Source: a virus
Lineage: Duplodnaviria; Caudoviricetes
IMG/VR virus record: IMGVR_UViG_3300010376_000002
Location: 1-64,000 of that record
Length of the DNA stretch: 64,000 nucleotides
Strand: one strand, 5' to 3'
Part shown: positions 41,729 to 53,126 of the stretch, piece by piece
How the letters are laid out: each line of letters starts with the position of its first letter
Numbering within the stretch: position 1 is the stretch's first letter
Position numbers and translations under genes: made by a program
The notes under the pieces: generated by a model
Database searches by the model: none
Seen by the model: the letters and a program-made list of their open reading frames with translations, nothing else
Told to the model about the DNA's origin: nothing

Positions 41729-42013
41729 ATGGGACGAGCAAAAATCGGCACCGGAACGCTGACTCCTTTCAAGAAGGGCGGCACCGGGAGCGAATCAATC
41801 GGCGGCTCAACCAGTAGGGAAGAGAGTGGACAACGCAAAGGTTTCACTAAGAAGATCTATTGCGATAAAGCCTCTCAATCGGTTACGAAACTTGTGCCGT
41901 TCTCTGACTCCGGCAGCGGAGGTCGCAATACGGGCGAAGGCGGAGTTCCGAACTTCCGCGTTCGCGATAACGGGATCAAGAACCCTGGTGGATACAGAGC
42001 ATTTCGTAAGTGA
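41729..42013 (+). CDS. small basic Gly-rich protein
   Basis: GTGA overlap with the next gene. Confidence 0.5.
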   Translation: MGRAKIGTGTLTPFKKGGTGSESIGGSTSREESGQRKGFTKKIYCDKASQSVTKLVPFSDSGSGGRNTGEGGVPNFRVRDNGIKNPGGYRAFRK

Positions 42014-42534
42014 GCGAAGAAGAAGAGGTTTGGAGAGCAATACCAGGGCTTGAGAATTATCAAGTCTCCAGCTTTGGTCGTATCTATTCGATGCCCAGAA
42101 TCACGCTGCTAGGGCGACCGTTCAAAGGCAGATTATTGGGCCAATACGTGAATAACAAAGGTTACAAAACGGTCAGCATCCAAGGTAAGACTTATGCCGT
42201 CCACCGATTGGTGGCGCTAGCCTTCCTAGGACCACCACCAGAAGAAATGGTGGTGGATCATGGCGATACCGATAAGACAAACAATCATTTCTCTAACCTC
42301 GAATACGTCACTGCGAAAGAAAATGTCGACAGAGCGGTAAAAGCCGGAAGATATGCTGCAAACGGCTGTCCAGCTGGAGAGCGGCATCCAAATGCGTGTC
42401 TAACTGATGCCCAAGTCCGAGATCTCCTTCATCTTGGCATGGAGGGGATGAAACCAAAAGACATCGCCACACATTTCGGAATATCCAGAAGTCATGTTTA
42501 CACGCTACTGTCTGGAAAAAAGAGAAAGGTATAA
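42010..42534 (+). mobile_element. NUMOD4-HNH homing endonuclease gene
   Basis: EVWRAIPG.ENYQVSSFGRI (NUMOD4), VHRLVALAF, VDH.D.DK.NN..SNLEYVT, C-terminal HTH. Confidence 0.9.
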
Positions 42535-42774: not shown

Positions 42775-42963
42775 ATGGCTGAGAAAAAGAAATGGATGGC
42801 GGAGGCTTTTAAGAATGCGCACGGGCAGCTCCGTCGCAAAACCGGCGCCAAACCTGGCAAACCAATTGCCGCTTCCAAGCTCGAAAAAGCGACCCATTCC
42901 GAAAGCACAAAGACTAAGAGACAAGCCGTTTTAGCCCAGACTGCACGTCGAGCTAATCGATGA
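42775..42963 (+). CDS. conserved small basic phage protein
   Basis: KKWM..AFK...G.L...G...GKPI..SKL.KA...K.QA.LA pattern. Confidence 0.65.
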   Translation: MAEKKKWMAEAFKNAHGQLRRKTGAKPGKPIAASKLEKATHSESTKTKRQAVLAQTARRANR

Positions 42964-43601
42964 TGAGAGTTATCTCAGGAATGACCCCCCCAGGTGGTTG
43001 GCATTTCCGGCAGAAGTTGGTGTCTCAGCCGGCGCGGCCGCGGGCGCAAGTCATCGGAGCGATGAGTTATGAGCAATTGGTCGAGAATGTATTTCAGTTC
43101 CGGCTCAATAACCTCGAGATGGTTCCTAGCGGCACAGCAACTCGTGAACAAGCAGAGCAAGACATCGCTTTCTATATCTGCGGACACTGGAGACACAACT
43201 GCACCGGCTCCGCAGCTGAACTTGCAAACGCTGGCAAGACGCCTCCGCCAGTTAAACATTACCCTCGACCGATTAACCGAATTGAGGACTGGCTTACCGT
43301 CTTAACTGAAAGGCCGCTAAAATGGGTGGACCAAGCTCGAGCAAGCGAACGAGCGCAGGTCTGTCTCAAGTGCCCGATGAACCAACCCTGGAGCGTCGGA
43401 AGTTGCAAACCTTGCAACGCCAATGTGGACCGCAGGGAGAAGCTGATCCGCGGCAGCCGATCAACCGGATTGGAACCCAAGCTCAAAGGATGTGTCTCCT
43501 TCGGCACTTTGCTCGTGCTCAGCATCTGGCTCGAAGACGACTTTACCGGCCCGAGACGGCAGCCGCCGGCGGAATGCTGGAAACTGACTGAAAAACGATG
43601 A
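42960..43601 (+). CDS. Cys-rich phage protein
   Basis: PPGGWHF, RAQVC..CP.N, C..C, L.GC, P..CW. Confidence 0.65.
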   Translation: MMRVISGMTPPGGWHFRQKLVSQPARPRAQVIGAMSYEQLVENVFQFRLNNLEMVPSGTATREQAEQDIAFYICGHWRHNCTGSAAELANAGKTPPPVKHYPRPINRIEDWLTVLTERPLKWVDQARASERAQVCLKCPMNQPWSVGSCKPCNANVDRREKLIRGSRSTGLEPKLKGCVSFGTLLVLSIWLEDDFTGPRRQPPAECWKLTEKR

Positions 43602-43744
43602 TCACTTTGGAAGATCTTAAGCAACGCACTGACTGGGAAATTCGAGCGATGACCCTTATCCAGCTAACCCGAATCGCCACTGCTCTGGAAGATATCGAGG
43701 TAGCGCTAGGAGCAATTTCGGATCGTATTCGTGAAAACGACTGA
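43598..43744 (+). CDS. 48-aa coiled-coil peptide not in the track
   Basis: MITLEDLKQRTDWEIRAMTLIQLTRIATALEDIEVALGAISDRIREND; ATGA overlap. Confidence 0.5.
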   Translation: MITLEDLKQRTDWEIRAMTLIQLTRIATALEDIEVALGAISDRIREND

Positions 43745-43753
43745 AGCTGCCGT

Positions 43754-44140
43754 ATGAGCGAAAAGATCCCGCCGGAGCCTAAAAACACCATCTGCATAGA
43801 CTTCGATGGAGTGTTAGCGGAGTACGACGGATGGAAAGGCGAAGAGCACTTCGGTTTTCCGATAGCTGGCGCCATCGACTTCGTTCGCGACCTGGTGAAC
43901 GCCGGTTACCAAGTATGTATCTGGACAACGCGCGCGAGTCGCGAAGGCGGCAGACGAGCATTGCAAGGTTGGTTTACCAAGCACGGGATGGATGAGACAA
44001 GGATTTCGCGACTCTGGTTTAGTGATGTGAAATTTCCCGCGATCCTCTACATCGATGACCGAGCCTATCGTTTCGATGGCATCTTTCCGACTCTGAAAGA
44101 GATCGACAATTTACGACCTTGGTGGGATAAAAAAGCGTAA
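43754..44140 (+). CDS. HAD-superfamily phosphatase
   Basis: IDFDGVL, WTTR, K, YIDD motifs I-IV. Confidence 0.85.
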   Translation: MSEKIPPEPKNTICIDFDGVLAEYDGWKGEEHFGFPIAGAIDFVRDLVNAGYQVCIWTTRASREGGRRALQGWFTKHGMDETRISRLWFSDVKFPAILYIDDRAYRFDGIFPTLKEIDNLRPWWDKKA

Positions 44141-44160
44141 GGTTACACATCTAGGACATC

Positions 44161-44200
44161 GCAGAAGGACGTGCCGTCAGCAGCACGTCCTTCTTGCTTT
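44161..44200 (+). terminator. intrinsic terminator
   Basis: Perfect 12-bp stem agaaggacgtgc/gcacgtccttct then tgcttt. Confidence 0.75.
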
Positions 44201-44231
44201 CGGCCGCCATACTACTAAATACATATAAAGC

Positions 44232-44345
44232 GCGCGGTAGTAGGAACGTATCTGCCGGTCACTTCGGATCATCGGCGTTGAGCTTGAAATTCTGGATAGC
44301 TGGCGTGAACGGGTTCCTCGGATGGGCAACCATTCGCCGCGCACC
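44232..44345 (+). ncRNA. candidate structured ncRNA with an acceptor-stem-like terminus ending ACC
   Basis: GCGCGG/CCGCGC, AGGAAC/GTTCCT, TATCT/GGATA helices, 6-7-bp GCAA-tetraloop hairpin, followed by T6. Confidence 0.6.
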
Positions 44346-44351
44346 TTTTTT

Positions 44352-44476
44352 GGGTCTGATTGGTAGAGTGAGGGTTGCGCCAGGAAAGCGCGATGACTTA
44401 AGCATCAGCGTCCTAGCAGACTGTAAGGTCGTCAGAAACAGCGTAGCCACTGAGGGTTCGATTCCCTCCAGATCCA
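44352..44476 (+). ncRNA. mini tmRNA-like RNA (tRNA-like domain only, Ala identity)
   Basis: GGGTCTG/CAGATCC-A acceptor stem with G3-U70, GAGGG-TTCGATT-CCCTC T-arm, stemless D region, 8-bp P2-like helix. Confidence 0.75.
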
Positions 44477-44542
44477 CTCTTTGTTTGATTTCAGCTCCGA
44501 CCGCGCGCAAGATCGTTTCTTGGAACGAGGCTTCGCTGCGCT

Positions 44543-46981
44543 ATGCCTGACACCTATTCCCCCGCTACGTCGTACGGACCAGGTGGTATCGGTCAATTTA
44601 ACCCACCCGAACTCAACGCAGCGGGACGTCCGACTAGCAAGCCGATCTCAAGTGCTCAACAGGCTTATTCGCTCTATCTGCGGTTCAAAAAACAAAACCG
44701 CGCGCGCGCAAACCGGAACAAAATTATTGCCGATGTGTATAACGGCAAAAGTCCTTACGACCAAAAGGAACTCGACGACCAGAACCAGGGCTGGCGCAGC
44801 AATATGTCGACCCAGTTCCTTTCTTCGATCGTTGACCGCGTCACGCCTCGTTTCACCGGCGCCATTCACGATATCAAATATCTGACCGCGGCCGAACTGC
44901 CAGACAGCTACGACGACTATCAGAACAAGTCCGAGCTGTACCAAATGAAGACGACCGAATTGATTAGGAAGTGGTCTGGCTGGACCGACTTCGTTCAACG
45001 CGTCGTCACCGAGGATGTGCTCCAGGGCTACACCATGGCTGCGAATATCGATGAGCATAATTGGCGGCCGCGGACCTATCGCCAGGAGGATGTGTACTTT
45101 GATGAACAGACTAGCCAAGACGTTCATAGGCTCGATTGCTTCTGTATTGAGCAAGATTTTTTCATTCACGAACTCATCTCCCTGCTCGAAGAGCCGGAGA
45201 CGACTGAGCGCGCCGGGTTCAACGTCGAAAACTTAAAATACGCGATCGAACACGCGATGCCGCCACGCGATGATTTGCCGTCTGATCCGCGGCAACTCTC
45301 TGATATGGCACGGGAAGCCTCGCTTTATTTCTCCTGGCATAAAGCCTCAAAAATGATCCAAACGGTTCACGTTTTTGTTCGGAATTATGTTGGTGGAATA
45401 GATCACTGGTGGGTTAACCGCGGCACCGGTCCGCAAGGGTCGACCGGTGTCGGACCGATGACTAACGATAACGTTGGCGGAGGTGAAGAATTATTCTTTG
45501 GCGACTCCGTTGCCGAGCTAATGGAAGACATAATTACCTTGTTTACCTTCCAATCTGGCAACGACCGGCTTTTTGGTAGTAAAGGGTTAGGGAGATTGTT
45601 AGTTAACATCGCAATTTCGATCGAACGTGAACGTAATTTATATTTCGACCAACAGTATATAGCCGGCTTACTCATCGGCACGGCCGAAGAAAAAGACATT
45701 CCATTTTTAGCGCCGAAGGTGCTCTCACCTTTCTTGATCCTACCTAAAGGGTTCGAACTGATGGCGCAACAATTGCAGTTTAATCCCGAGGCGTTTGCAG
45801 GTCTTGATAACAAACTCACCGCCATCTCAGAAATCATCGCCGGCACTTTCATACCCGAGCAAATTCAAGCCAGCGGACAAGTCGGACAAAGCGACAAGAC
45901 AGCCACTGAAGCAACTATTGACGCAACTCGTGAACAGGAGATTCGTCAGGGTATTTTAAATAGGTGGTGGAATCAGTTTACGCACTTGGTTAGTCAGATG
46001 CAGCGGAGGATTTACACTCCGCTTAACATACGGGCTGCGCTTGCTTTCGCCGAGGCACGCGACGAAGCGATAACGGCCGGACTGAAGCTCGTCGACCAAG
46101 AGATGATGGAACGTCTTTTGAAAATCGATCCGGCCGCGGGCGAGAATTATACCACTGCTCCTCCCTACGGGCGTGCTGACGGCGAAGCTGTTCAAACCAT
46201 AGTGCAGTTGCTAGACGCTGGGTTAGCTCCCGATGAAATCCTCTTATTAGCTTATACGCCGGCCCAGGAATACAATACGAATGTCGGTGCAATCGAGGAT
46301 AACAAGCTCCTGCAATTCGCGATGCAGGCACTCGCAAATCCCTACTGGGACCAAGGAAAATTAAATTTCGAAGCGGGCGCGGCAATGATCGGATATCGAC
46401 GGGCGAAAGACTTGTTCGTGGGTGATCCATCGATGTCGACTAACCTGGAACAACAGCGAGCGCAATACTCCGAATTCACCGACATGACCCAAGGTCAAGC
46501 GATGCCCGTCTCCGACCGCGACGATCACGTGCAGCATATGACTGCATTAAATCAAAAAATGATGGCATCGCTCAACACGATGAGGGAGATCCCGCCTGAG
46601 GTGATTCCAGAACAAGACCTCAACACGATGAAGTTGGCGCTACTTCACGGTGAGGCGCACGTGCAGGCCGAGAACAAAAAGAACTCTTCTATCAAATCCG
46701 GCGGCAAGGGTAAACGGACCAAAGAGATACAACCACTCGCCGCTCAGCTCGGTGAAGCTAACAAAGTCTTTGAAGCGATTTTAAATAACCGCGCGAAAGC
46801 TCAAGCCGCCCAAGCAATGGCTAATCCGATGGATCGGTCAATGCAACCTCCGGCGCATACTTGGCCATCAGGACAGCCGGCTCCGCTACCTCCTGGCACC
46901 AGGCATGGCATCGGAGGAATGCCCACCTCGCTTCCGCCGGCGACACCCAACCCCGCTACTGGAACCACTGTACCCGCTTGA
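44543..46981 (+). CDS. portal (head-tail connector) protein, putative
   Basis: 812 aa; YNGKSPY..EL...QGWRSN, FG.KGLG, E.TATE patterns; followed by a scaffold-like gene. Confidence 0.7.
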   Translation: MPDTYSPATSYGPGGIGQFNPPELNAAGRPTSKPISSAQQAYSLYLRFKKQNRARANRNKIIADVYNGKSPYDQKELDDQNQGWRSNMSTQFLSSIVDRVTPRFTGAIHDIKYLTAAELPDSYDDYQNKSELYQMKTTELIRKWSGWTDFVQRVVTEDVLQGYTMAANIDEHNWRPRTYRQEDVYFDEQTSQDVHRLDCFCIEQDFFIHELISLLEEPETTERAGFNVENLKYAIEHAMPPRDDLPSDPRQLSDMAREASLYFSWHKASKMIQTVHVFVRNYVGGIDHWWVNRGTGPQGSTGVGPMTNDNVGGGEELFFGDSVAELMEDIITLFTFQSGNDRLFGSKGLGRLLVNIAISIERERNLYFDQQYIAGLLIGTAEEKDIPFLAPKVLSPFLILPKGFELMAQQLQFNPEAFAGLDNKLTAISEIIAGTFIPEQIQASGQVGQSDKTATEATIDATREQEIRQGILNRWWNQFTHLVSQMQRRIYTPLNIRAALAFAEARDEAITAGLKLVDQEMMERLLKIDPAAGENYTTAPPYGRADGEAVQTIVQLLDAGLAPDEILLLAYTPAQEYNTNVGAIEDNKLLQFAMQALANPYWDQGKLNFEAGAAMIGYRRAKDLFVGDPSMSTNLEQQRAQYSEFTDMTQGQAMPVSDRDDHVQHMTALNQKMMASLNTMREIPPEVIPEQDLNTMKLALLHGEAHVQAENKKNSSIKSGGKGKRTKEIQPLAAQLGEANKVFEAILNNRAKAQAAQAMANPMDRSMQPPAHTWPSGQPAPLPPGTRHGIGGMPTSLPPATPNPATGTTVPA

Positions 46982-51035: not shown

Positions 51036-53126
51036 TTATAAGACTTGCGGAAAACTGTTTCCGTAGGTGCTCCGCGGCCACTGTAAAGTGATTGTCTGAT
51101 GCGGATAGCGCGCCCGCCATTCGTCATCCAACATGTCGACCGCGAGATTGATTTGGTCCATGGCGATCTGGACCGGCGCCGTTGGCATTAGCGTATTCAT
51201 CGCACTTCCCCCCCCCGCGGTACGAAGCGCAGCGACGCCGGTCAAAGCTTGGATAATCGCTTCGCGCGAGCGCACGTGTAAGGGATCAGTTAGCTCGCTG
51301 ATTTTGAGCCAGTTTTTCTTATATCTCAGCCTCACCCGTTTACACATCGTGCCGACCCTGATGATCCGATATTGCGGTTCAGTGTCCCACGGCCAATAGA
51401 GCGCGATGAAGTTTGTTTGCGGATAGTTGGTTTGCCAATTAGTGTTGCCGTCCCAGATCCCGGTCGGAGGAGGAAGAACAATTGGCGGCGTGGCTTGAAG
51501 TGCGAATGGATTAGTCGCGAAAAGGTTGAGAAATCCGAAGGTCGGATCTTTGGTCACCCGTTCGACTTGGTCGAAAATCTGTTTCGAAGGAGTGGTACGA
51601 TTCGAGTAGCAGGGAATATCGACACCCCAAGTTCCGCGAGAATTCAGTACGGGCTGGTCTTGGTAATAGCCGTAGACCGTAATTGTGGCGCCATTGTCCT
51701 GGGGGAGCTCGGGCACGGCAAAAAGCTGCGCCGGCCCTTTCAAGCGAAAAGCGAGCGGAGTCGAACCTTGCTCTTCCCAACCTTTTGCTAAGCGATTGGA
51801 TCCATTGATGCGCGTAAAGGAACAGTTGGCACTCGTATATGGATCGCTCGGCCAGACACTCGAGCCTTGAGTTGCAGCGAGCTGCGGCCAAGGCACCCAT
51901 TGGTTCGGATCCTGATCGAGGTCGCCAAACTCGCCCATGCCGGCGTAAGAAAATTCGAACCAAGGCGAATGATAGGCGCCGATCGTTCGATTGATGTTCA
52001 TCGCCAGCACCGTGTCGACGTACCGCGGTAACGCCACGTAATAATCGTCGTCCGCGCGCAAGGTAACAACGCCAGTGAGCGAGTCCCAGTATTGGCATTT
52101 GTTATACAACACCTCCATCGTCGACGTAATCCGATCGAAAATCTTCTGCCGGCCGATCGGACCGAAGAGCCGCGCAGCATCATCATAAACGTCCGCGACG
52201 ATCACGACGTCTCGCTGACCAATCGTGAGATTGAGAGCACTGGAAACCTCGGTGGTAGCGCTCGCCGCGATGTATTGGTTGCGGGCGGCTTGCTCTTCAG
52301 TCAGAAGCTGAACCGCGATCGCCTCGGTTTGCTGCGCCAGGTCGAAGTGCACCTCGTCCTCATACTTGATAGTCTGGCACTGCATGATAACGGCCTGCGA
52401 CGAATTCAGCGGAATCACGTCCAGAAGCGAGGTGATCTTCATGGTCTTCCGCCTGGCGAGCATCCGAACCGAGACTGCTTTCTGGCTCAGCTTGATACAG
52501 CTGAACTCCGGAAGTGTGACCTCCGGATAGTAATAGGCCAAGATGTAGGGACCGGCCGATAAAGTCACAGTTCCCACGGTTACCGGTTTCACGACCTCAA
52601 TCACTCCGTAGACATTCTGCGACGGCGCCGCCACGGTGCCGGCCGGCGCGATCGGAAGCTGGATCACGTAGTCGTTCGCACTCTTGGTTCGGATCTTGAC
52701 GTTGAGTTCGAGAGCTTCGTCCGCTTCGGAGTCACTCGTTGCCGTCAGTGCCCAACCGCCGCGCGGGAATCGCCGCTGAATGGGAGAAGTGAGCCGGTCC
52801 TGCCACTGCCAGCCTGCCTCGAGGTCGGACGATCCTGGCCCATTCATTTGGAATTCATAGAGCGTGTTATGACTGAAAGCAGGGTTGCCGTTCAGGTTGC
52901 AGCGAATGGGCTTTTCGATCTGGTAGGGTAGATAGACGTAATAGCTTTGCTGGACTGGCAGATCCAAATAAATCTGAAGCGGATCAAAGGTGACGCTGCC
53001 GGCGGCCGCACAAACTTTCCGCGCCAAGGTTTCCACGGCACGTGTCAGAACGCCGAACAAGTAGGGTTGGTCGCATCGACCCGTCACTTGTTCGACTTCG
53101 CCAATAATGTCTCCGACTAAAATCAT
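51036..53126 (-). CDS. head-tail adaptor/tail tubular-like protein with internal duplication
   Basis: Two similar halves (V.D...., YV.LP......N.N...H..(Y/F)EF...G.G). Confidence 0.55.
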   Translation of the reverse strand: MILVGDIIGEVEQVTGRCDQPYLFGVLTRAVETLARKVCAAAGSVTFDPLQIYLDLPVQQSYYVYLPYQIEKPIRCNLNGNPAFSHNTLYEFQMNGPGSSDLEAGWQWQDRLTSPIQRRFPRGGWALTATSDSEADEALELNVKIRTKSANDYVIQLPIAPAGTVAAPSQNVYGVIEVVKPVTVGTVTLSAGPYILAYYYPEVTLPEFSCIKLSQKAVSVRMLARRKTMKITSLLDVIPLNSSQAVIMQCQTIKYEDEVHFDLAQQTEAIAVQLLTEEQAARNQYIAASATTEVSSALNLTIGQRDVVIVADVYDDAARLFGPIGRQKIFDRITSTMEVLYNKCQYWDSLTGVVTLRADDDYYVALPRYVDTVLAMNINRTIGAYHSPWFEFSYAGMGEFGDLDQDPNQWVPWPQLAATQGSSVWPSDPYTSANCSFTRINGSNRLAKGWEEQGSTPLAFRLKGPAQLFAVPELPQDNGATITVYGYYQDQPVLNSRGTWGVDIPCYSNRTTPSKQIFDQVERVTKDPTFGFLNLFATNPFALQATPPIVLPPPTGIWDGNTNWQTNYPQTNFIALYWPWDTEPQYRIIRVGTMCKRVRLRYKKNWLKISELTDPLHVRSREAIIQALTGVAALRTAGGGSAMNTLMPTAPVQIAMDQINLAVDMLDDEWRARYPHQTITLQWPRSTYGNSFPQVL

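Follow-up and report, generated by a model that had tools for sequence, protein, structure and literature searches.

The genome of a soil phage carries, at positions 44352-44476 (+) of the window, i.e., the 64,000-nt stretch of the viral record that was analysed, a 125-nt tRNA-like element whose architecture is that of the tRNA-like domain (TLD) of tmRNA and whose sequence does not belong with those of the tmRNAs. An earlier note on this DNA had described a mini tmRNA-like RNA with alanine identity and no tag reading frame, and each of the sequence features was confirmed at its coordinates. The note had also held that no phage RNA class of this form had been described, which is incorrect: the 'TLD only' RNA of phage DS6A is already published (PMC4131195, PMC11915505), and the element is an unusual putative variant of the published phage TLD-only RNAs, not a new class. 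Our preferred explanation, which we hold tentatively on the analysis as a whole, is that the element is a real, tRNA-derived and gene-like RNA, an anticodon-less alanine-type mimic that would be chargeable and non-decoding and may interfere with tmRNA-SmpB.

Anatomy and detection of the element

The 5' strand of the acceptor stem, GGGTCTG (44352-44358, with G3 at 44354), forms seven of seven pairs, including G3-U70, with the 3' strand CAGATCC (44469-44475), which is followed by the discriminator A73 (44476; T70 is at 44473). The T-arm GAGGG-TTCGATT-CCCTC (44452-44468) is stacked straight onto the acceptor 3' strand. The D region ATTGGTAGAGTGAG (44359-44372) comprises 14 nt of the tRNA D-loop type without a D-stem, and contains a GG that could dock on the T-loop. 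It leads into the 5' strand GGTTGCGC (44373-44380) of a P2-like helix, which pairs over 8 bp, two of them G-U, with GCGTAGCC (44441-44448); between the two strands lies a distal insert of 60 nt (44381-44440). The 3-nt linker ACT (44449-44451), found in the place of GGAC in tmRNAs, connects P2 to the T-arm, and all of these parts are on the + strand. The element has no anticodon loop, and as CTC follows directly after A73, it has no encoded CCA. Its leader, directly 5' of G1, is U6 and its trailer is U-rich.

The acceptor, P2 and T helices were all recovered by MFE and centroid folds, with P2 extended to 10 bp with one bulge. The centroid fold also gave the two insert hairpins proposed in the earlier note, one at 44389-44410 (+) with 7 bp, a bulge and the 7-nt loop ACTTAAG, and one at 44419-44430 (+) with a GTAA tetraloop. 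The fold stability z-score of the element is only -1.8. A hairpin that the note had pointed out as a competitor of P2, GCGC at 44377-44380 with 44388-44391, is real, and the T-stem sequence GAGGG has a second copy at 44370-44374. By eye, the sole reading frame of the insert is a four-codon frame at 44402-44416 (GCA TCA GCG TCC TAG, encoding ASAS). We also observed an 8-nt direct repeat, TGAGGGTT, at 44369-44376 and 44451-44458, 82 nt apart, of which the first copy spans the end of the D region and the start of P2 and the second the linker and the 5' strand of the T-stem. This repeat provides an alternative pairing partner for CCCTC, and may mark the place where a shorter minihelix received an insertion.

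As a chance control we searched 200 dinucleotide shuffles of the window for a T-arm with a fully paired (7/7) acceptor immediately after it, G3-U70 and A73 included. This alanine-type architecture occurred 0.01 times per shuffled window, which indicates that the element is tRNA-derived and not a chance match. Standard detectors did not recover it. ARAGORN in default, intron and tmRNA modes and at lowered thresholds made no credible call on the element; with introns of up to 3000 nt it returned none at default thresholds and implausible models only at lowered ones, so that a canonical or intron-containing tRNA, the identity against which the earlier note had set its own reading, was not found, and the element has neither a D-stem nor a 7-nt anticodon loop (U33). 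The tmRNA mode of ARAGORN, one of the checks proposed in the note, made no tmRNA call and, including lowered thresholds, found no tag peptide and no pseudoknot-bearing tmRNA on the element. A second check, Infernal against Rfam, gave nothing convincing on the element at gathering thresholds; in E-value mode the tmRNA model (RF00023) aligned with the T-arm alone (model positions 347-363) at 11.7 bits, below the gathering score of 47. An ORF that spans the element (44194-44550) looks non-coding and is uncalled by public gene callers, and no promoter-like site for the element was detected in our scan.

Relation to tmRNA, tRNA-Ala and TLD-only RNAs

The two ends of the element are those of an alanine-accepting tRNA-like domain. 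Its 3' 24-mer AGGGTTCGATTCCCTCCAGNTCCA, with position 69 left free, has at least 120 matching stretches in representative bacterial genomes; among the matches listed, 93 were annotated by ARAGORN (88 as tmRNA, three as tRNA-Ala and two odd), and the tmRNA genes among them come from Bacteroidales and soil Acidimicrobiales/Microthrixaceae. The first 13 nt agree with tmRNA 5' ends at 11 of 13 positions, including A8, which is U8 in tRNAs. Also shared with the tmRNA TLD are the 7-bp acceptor with G3-U70 and A73, the canonical T-arm and a stemless D loop followed by P2. The tmRNA signature GGWTTYGAC...GGAC (UUCGAC/GGAC) is absent: the element reads GGTAGAGTGAG ... CCACT, and keeps signature residues by position only, namely Y18-G19-A20 and one linker A. 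In tmRNA, G19 of this signature contacts and stacks on SmpB (PMC8363625). The D loops of tmRNAs read AYYGGWTTYGAC, unlike that of the element, in which GATTGGTAGAG is a common canonical tRNA D-loop sequence. The element also contains no pseudoknots and no tag reading frame as in tmRNA, and the RF00023 covariance model matches its T-arm and does not span both ends. Thus, of the mini tmRNA-like identity suggested in the note, the layout and the 3' end, found mostly in tmRNA genes, hold, whereas the sequence signature and an Rfam match beyond the T-arm do not.

A tRNA gene also matches at the 3' side. A marine tRNA-Ala(TGC) at a metagenome locus (L144) is identical to the element over the 25 nt of the T-arm and acceptor 3' end and over GGGTCTG, and likewise encodes no CCA; it has a D-stem and an anticodon arm, whereas the element has neither. 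Given this identity, the element may descend from either a tmRNA or a tRNA-Ala. Separately, we noted five elements of 69-72 nt in bacterial MAGs (L040:169-237(-), L105:2398-2466(-), L064:1708-1776(-), L125:4656-4724(+) and L138:7472-7543(-)) that lack a D-stem and have G3-U70 and the same T-arm as the window element. They come from Acidimicrobiales, Rhodobacterales, Chloroflexota and Acidobacteriota, are not called as normal tRNAs by ARAGORN, and have as neighbours ordinary chromosomal genes (RNR, DnaG, transketolase) or IS transposases.

The closest described counterpart is from a phage. Hudson, Lau & Williams (2014) list 'Mycobacterium phage DS6A (TLD only)' (PMC4131195; tmRNA Website tmID 11587), and we located this gene, which is unannotated in GenBank, between gp33 and gp34 (L010:28478-28557; JN698994). 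Its 80 nt comprise GGGGCCG, a 14-nt D region, a 5-bp P2, a 20-nt hairpin, a 4-nt linker, the T-arm and CGGCTCC-A, with no CCA. The geometry that the earlier note had recognised, a tmRNA tRNA-like domain without a tag frame, matches the DS6A layout: both RNAs are phage-encoded and intergenic, and have a 7-bp acceptor with G3-U70, A73, a 14-nt stemless D region, P2, a linker of 3-4 nt and a canonical T-arm, with no CCA and no tag frame, and both are missed by ARAGORN. DS6A differs in its length of 80 nt, its 20-nt inner hairpin and its retention of tmRNA motifs (UCGAC, GCAC/GGAC), and it aligns with the Rfam tmRNA model end to end (34.7 bits, E 1e-12), whereas the element is 45 nt longer (125 nt), with a two-hairpin insert of 60 nt and a tRNA-type D loop. 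Phage DS6A also encodes an RtcB-like RNA ligase and MazG.

A first metagenome scan for the element gave zero matches, and a second returned tRNAs, tmRNAs, six DS6A-type TLD-only genes and a two-T-arm element described below. The six genes (L148:4248-4325, L159:3043-3122, L165:1218-1295, L179:8698-8774, L180:895-971(-) and L188:847-923(-)) are 77-80 nt long, have the same acceptor GGGTCTG/CAGATCC as the element and no CCA, and contain a conserved inner hairpin AAAGCCGCACGCGG, in place of which the element has its unrelated 60-nt insert. A covariance model built on five members, DS6A and four of the metagenomic relatives, has 10 of 23 pairs covarying. With six metagenomic relatives and this covariation, the published DS6A singleton becomes a family. 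The model gave 90 bits for two members outside the build, which are sequence-identical to one inside it, and 18.9 bits for the element, over 44418-44476 only; as the model penalises the long insert, the latter result concerns sequence membership and not architecture. The element thus shares the DS6A-type layout (acceptor, a D region of ~12-14 nt, P2, short linker, T-arm, A73 and no tag) and departs from the family in length and inner hairpin. Tag-less tRNA-like domains are also listed among the tmRNAs of mitochondria and Mallomonadaceae plastids, next to DS6A (PMC11915505). These CDS-less RNAs resemble the element in having a tRNA-like domain without a tag frame, but they are organellar, often permuted, far shorter (~65 bp in the plastid case) and co-occur with SmpB, which the phage does not encode.

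The two-T-arm element (L171:2978-3117(-), metagenome contig Ga0070746_10008238) is a distant structural relative of 140 nt that lies in an intergenic position on a phage contig with replication initiator, SSB and small terminase genes; the protein encoded downstream of it has no relative in IMG/VR. We know of no description of such an RNA. Its inner unit is circularly permuted, and runs from the T-arm through CGGCTCC-A, a 7-nt loop, GGGGCCG and the D loop ATTGGTAGACGTGA to an 8-bp P2. Its outer unit has a GGGTCTG/CAGATCC-ACCA acceptor, ending in CCA, and a D-arm-like hairpin. The two units share one 8-bp helix, making this a 'double-headed' alanine-type tRNA mimic. The inner unit scores 32.2 bits (E 4e-5) with Rfam tmRNA_permuted, short of the gathering threshold. 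In a single pairwise alignment parsed by hand, the D loop of the inner unit is identical to that of the element at 13 of 14 positions, and all 20 acceptor, P2 and T pairs are kept, although both partners differ in six of them and one partner in three; within P2, all eight pairs are kept although five are changed. G3-U70 is also kept in the inner unit, in an acceptor that lay outside the search pattern, and both units, like DS6A, have G3-U70 and A73. The inner unit thus resembles the element in its near-identical D loop, 8-bp P2, linker of 2-3 nt, G3-U70 and compensated stems, and differs in being permuted, nested in a second acceptor/T-arm unit and without the 60-nt insert. This comparison lends modest support to a constraint on the layout and the D loop.

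Genomic setting and distribution

The host record is a complete virus of 73,818 bp from soil metagenomes, with direct terminal repeats. Its phage genes include those for a RecT-like protein, a large terminase, a Gp80 podophage fibre-protein domain, a helicase and an HNH endonuclease, and searches for SmpB, a CCA-adding enzyme, RtcB, a tyrosine integrase and a serine recombinase found none encoded in the complete phage. The element is the sole tRNA-related sequence of the 73.8-kb genome, with no canonical tRNA and no other Rfam family; T-loop-like 11-mers at 51757, 63192 and 63327 lie inside coding sequence and are without stems.

Downstream, on the same strand, an 812-aa gene begins with an ATG 66 nt after the end of the element. 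It is a putative portal gene with no match in Pfam, PHROG or NCBIfam, and has relatives at ~75% identity in five IMG/VR contigs. In four of these related phages (L002-L005), ~40 nt separate the end of the orthologue (56% identity) of ORF 42960-43601 from the 812-aa gene's counterpart directly downstream, which defines 43602-44542 (+) as an accessory insertion of 0.9 kb, missing from these relatives, with a HAD-like ORF, a hairpin, a structured stretch (44232-44345) and the tRNA-like element. The ORF (43754-44140, +; 128 aa) encodes a HAD-IIIA-like phosphatase that weakly resembles the HAD domains of polynucleotide kinase/phosphatase and of RNA repair, and no homologue of this protein between 46% and 100% identity was found among 5.8 billion proteins. 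No tRNA-like element was found beside HAD-protein homologues in the phage neighbourhoods examined. On the contig of a further homologue, P0002, the HAD gene is followed by a gene-free gap of 548 nt. After the HAD ORF in the window comes a perfect 12-bp hairpin followed by TTGCTTTC (44163-44194, +), a possible terminator that a consensus terminator scan did not call.

Further structure was noticed just upstream of the element, at ~44229-44351 (+), where the fold z-score is -2.4. Its terminal helix is GCGCGG/CCGCGC, after which come ACC and T6; there is also a long inner helix, and a GCAA-loop hairpin of 6 bp adjoins the 3' strand. Alternatively, GCGCGCGG at 44230-44237 can pair with CCGCGCGC at 44501-44508, which would enclose the upstream RNA and the element, i.e., the whole non-coding block. 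An HNH/NUMOD4 homing-endonuclease-like gene at 42010-42534 (+) of the window lies 1 kb upstream of the accessory insertion and may be relevant to its arrival.

Searches for diverged copies of the element returned none. Blastn and tblastn against 50,697 phage records gave no useful homologue, the element is missing from L002-L006 and from the whole records of the four relatives L002-L005, and pattern scans of IMG/VR (D loop with T-loop, the 3' 25-mer and the D-loop motif) gave chance coding matches or canonical tRNAs only. The 60-nt insert had no homologue in any search made. With relatives that lack the element and a HAD protein without homologues in the 46%-100% range, the insertion is a singleton. 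Identical copies of the element occur in soil metagenomes of three studies (at least three runs); four soil DNA runs are identical wherever they cover the region, and so provide no variants to compare. The runs listed as containing the sequence include no RNA data set.

Candidate roles

The absence of the element from related phages raises the possibility of an inert remnant, i.e., a tRNA-Ala or tmRNA gene that came in with the insertion and is now decaying, after loss of its D-stem 5' strand and of its anticodon or mRNA part. This would fit its singleton status, the canonical tRNA D-loop sequence fused straight to the acceptor, the 25-nt 3' end identical to that of the CCA-less tRNA-Ala, the TGAGGGTT repeat on either side of an 82-nt segment, a possible trace of an insertion event, and the failure of every detector. 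A decaying gene is harder to reconcile with at least 20 intact base pairs in three helices and a retained G3-U70, with a D-stem-less layout that recurs in DS6A, the six metagenomic genes and L171 with compensated pairs, and with its unchanged sequence across the soil metagenomes of three studies (at least three runs), and we consider it unlikely while giving it real weight. A role in cis is also conceivable. The t-elements of plant mitochondrial mRNAs and mascRNA-type mimics are acceptor/T-arm mimics in longer transcripts that are cut by RNase P and RNase Z, and such tRNA-like processing signals have no need for alanine identity elements. The element resembles them as an acceptor/T-arm mimic; in this case the two cuts would set the mRNA 5' end for the 812-aa gene, and the RNA would have no role in trans. 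The co-orientation of both flanking genes, the 66-nt distance to the ATG, the U6 leader and U-rich trailer, and the GCGCGCGG/CCGCGCGC pairing around the non-coding block are compatible with such a signal. Yet G3-U70 and A73, which it would not need, are kept in the element, both L171 units and DS6A, and relatives without the element express the orthologous gene, which makes a processing signal rather improbable.

Other readings invoke different partners. The element and the L171 inner unit might form a separate, undescribed lineage of phage alanine-type mimics, in which the D loop, AUUGGUAGA(C)GUGAGG, is of the tRNA type and the distal module can be swapped (two hairpins in the element, a second acceptor/T-arm head in L171). 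Such RNAs would act not as an SmpB sponge but on another partner that reads acceptor ends, e.g., by diverting defence toxins that modify tRNA ends, perhaps with the help of the HAD-like phosphatase; we regard this reading as doubtful. We attach little probability to a more general decoy for host defence toxins or enzymes acting on tRNA acceptor ends or elbows, perhaps again with the phosphatase. The acceptor and T halves are intact and share the accessory insertion with a HAD-IIIA-like protein weakly similar to RNA-repair HAD domains, but no tRNA-like element adjoins the HAD homologues of other phages, and the phage lacks an RNA ligase (RtcB) and a CCA-adding enzyme. A minimal working tmRNA, rescuing ribosomes with no tag or with the very short tag ASAS, appears very unlikely. 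The four-codon frame begins with GCA and ends with a stop (44402-44416), and natural 2-aa tags have been reported (PMC11915505), but the frame lies inside a predicted stem and is of a kind likely to arise by chance in 60 nt, and there is neither a pseudoknot nor a tmRNA call even at lowered thresholds. Hardly credible, finally, is a phage attachment site (attP) with a sequence taken from the 3' end of a tRNA or tmRNA gene of the host. Many tmRNA genes do end almost exactly as the 3' 24-mer of the element, but the complete phage has direct terminal repeats and neither a tyrosine integrase nor a serine recombinase, and an attP would not need the 5' acceptor strand, D region and P2 that are also present.

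We return to the chargeable alanine-type mimic that we tentatively prefer. For it we count the intact helices, a layout that equals DS6A part for part and recurs in metagenome relatives, and the absence of a called gene across the element; against it stand the relatives without the element, the lack of the tmRNA signature and of diverged close homologues, the scan that found no promoter-like site, the T-arm-only Rfam match, the partial 18.9-bit match to the DS6A-type model, the z-score of -1.8, the GAGGG duplication and the GCGC hairpin that competes with P2. On this model, a transcript of the accessory insertion would be processed by RNase P, which would cleave behind the U6 leader to leave G1 as the 5' end, and by a 3' nuclease trimming back to A73, before the host CCA-adding enzyme completes the end. 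AlaRS could then charge the RNA through G3-U70 and A73. Since such an RNA would be unable to decode, it would most likely compete with host tmRNA for SmpB, AlaRS or EF-Tu, and trans-translation may be dampened during infection. The competition model draws on an analogy: Mao et al. (2009; RNA Biol 6:355), as cited by Hudson et al. (2014; PMC4131195), found tmRNA to be inhibited by a similar TLD-only molecule, synthetic or expressed, and according to the 2025 tmRNA database paper, DS6A's own form inhibits endogenous tmRNA in E. coli (PMC11915505). As these two sources present it, the likeness to the element lies in the proposed action, a TLD that competes with tmRNA, perhaps by titration of SmpB; the RNA used in that E. 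coli work had a different sequence, and the D-loop residues of the element differ from those that contact SmpB.

Phage RNAs limited to a likeness of the chargeable half of a tRNA or tmRNA have been published from one phage, with scant functional follow-up. By itself the element, a singleton recognised from its nucleotide sequence, adds a variant and no new principle. It shows that a sequence lacking the tmRNA signature and bearing a large additional domain can have this layout; as both ARAGORN and Rfam miss it, it makes a case for architecture-based searches. If TLD-like phage RNAs do block or re-route ribosome rescue, they would represent a phage takeover strategy directed against translation quality control.
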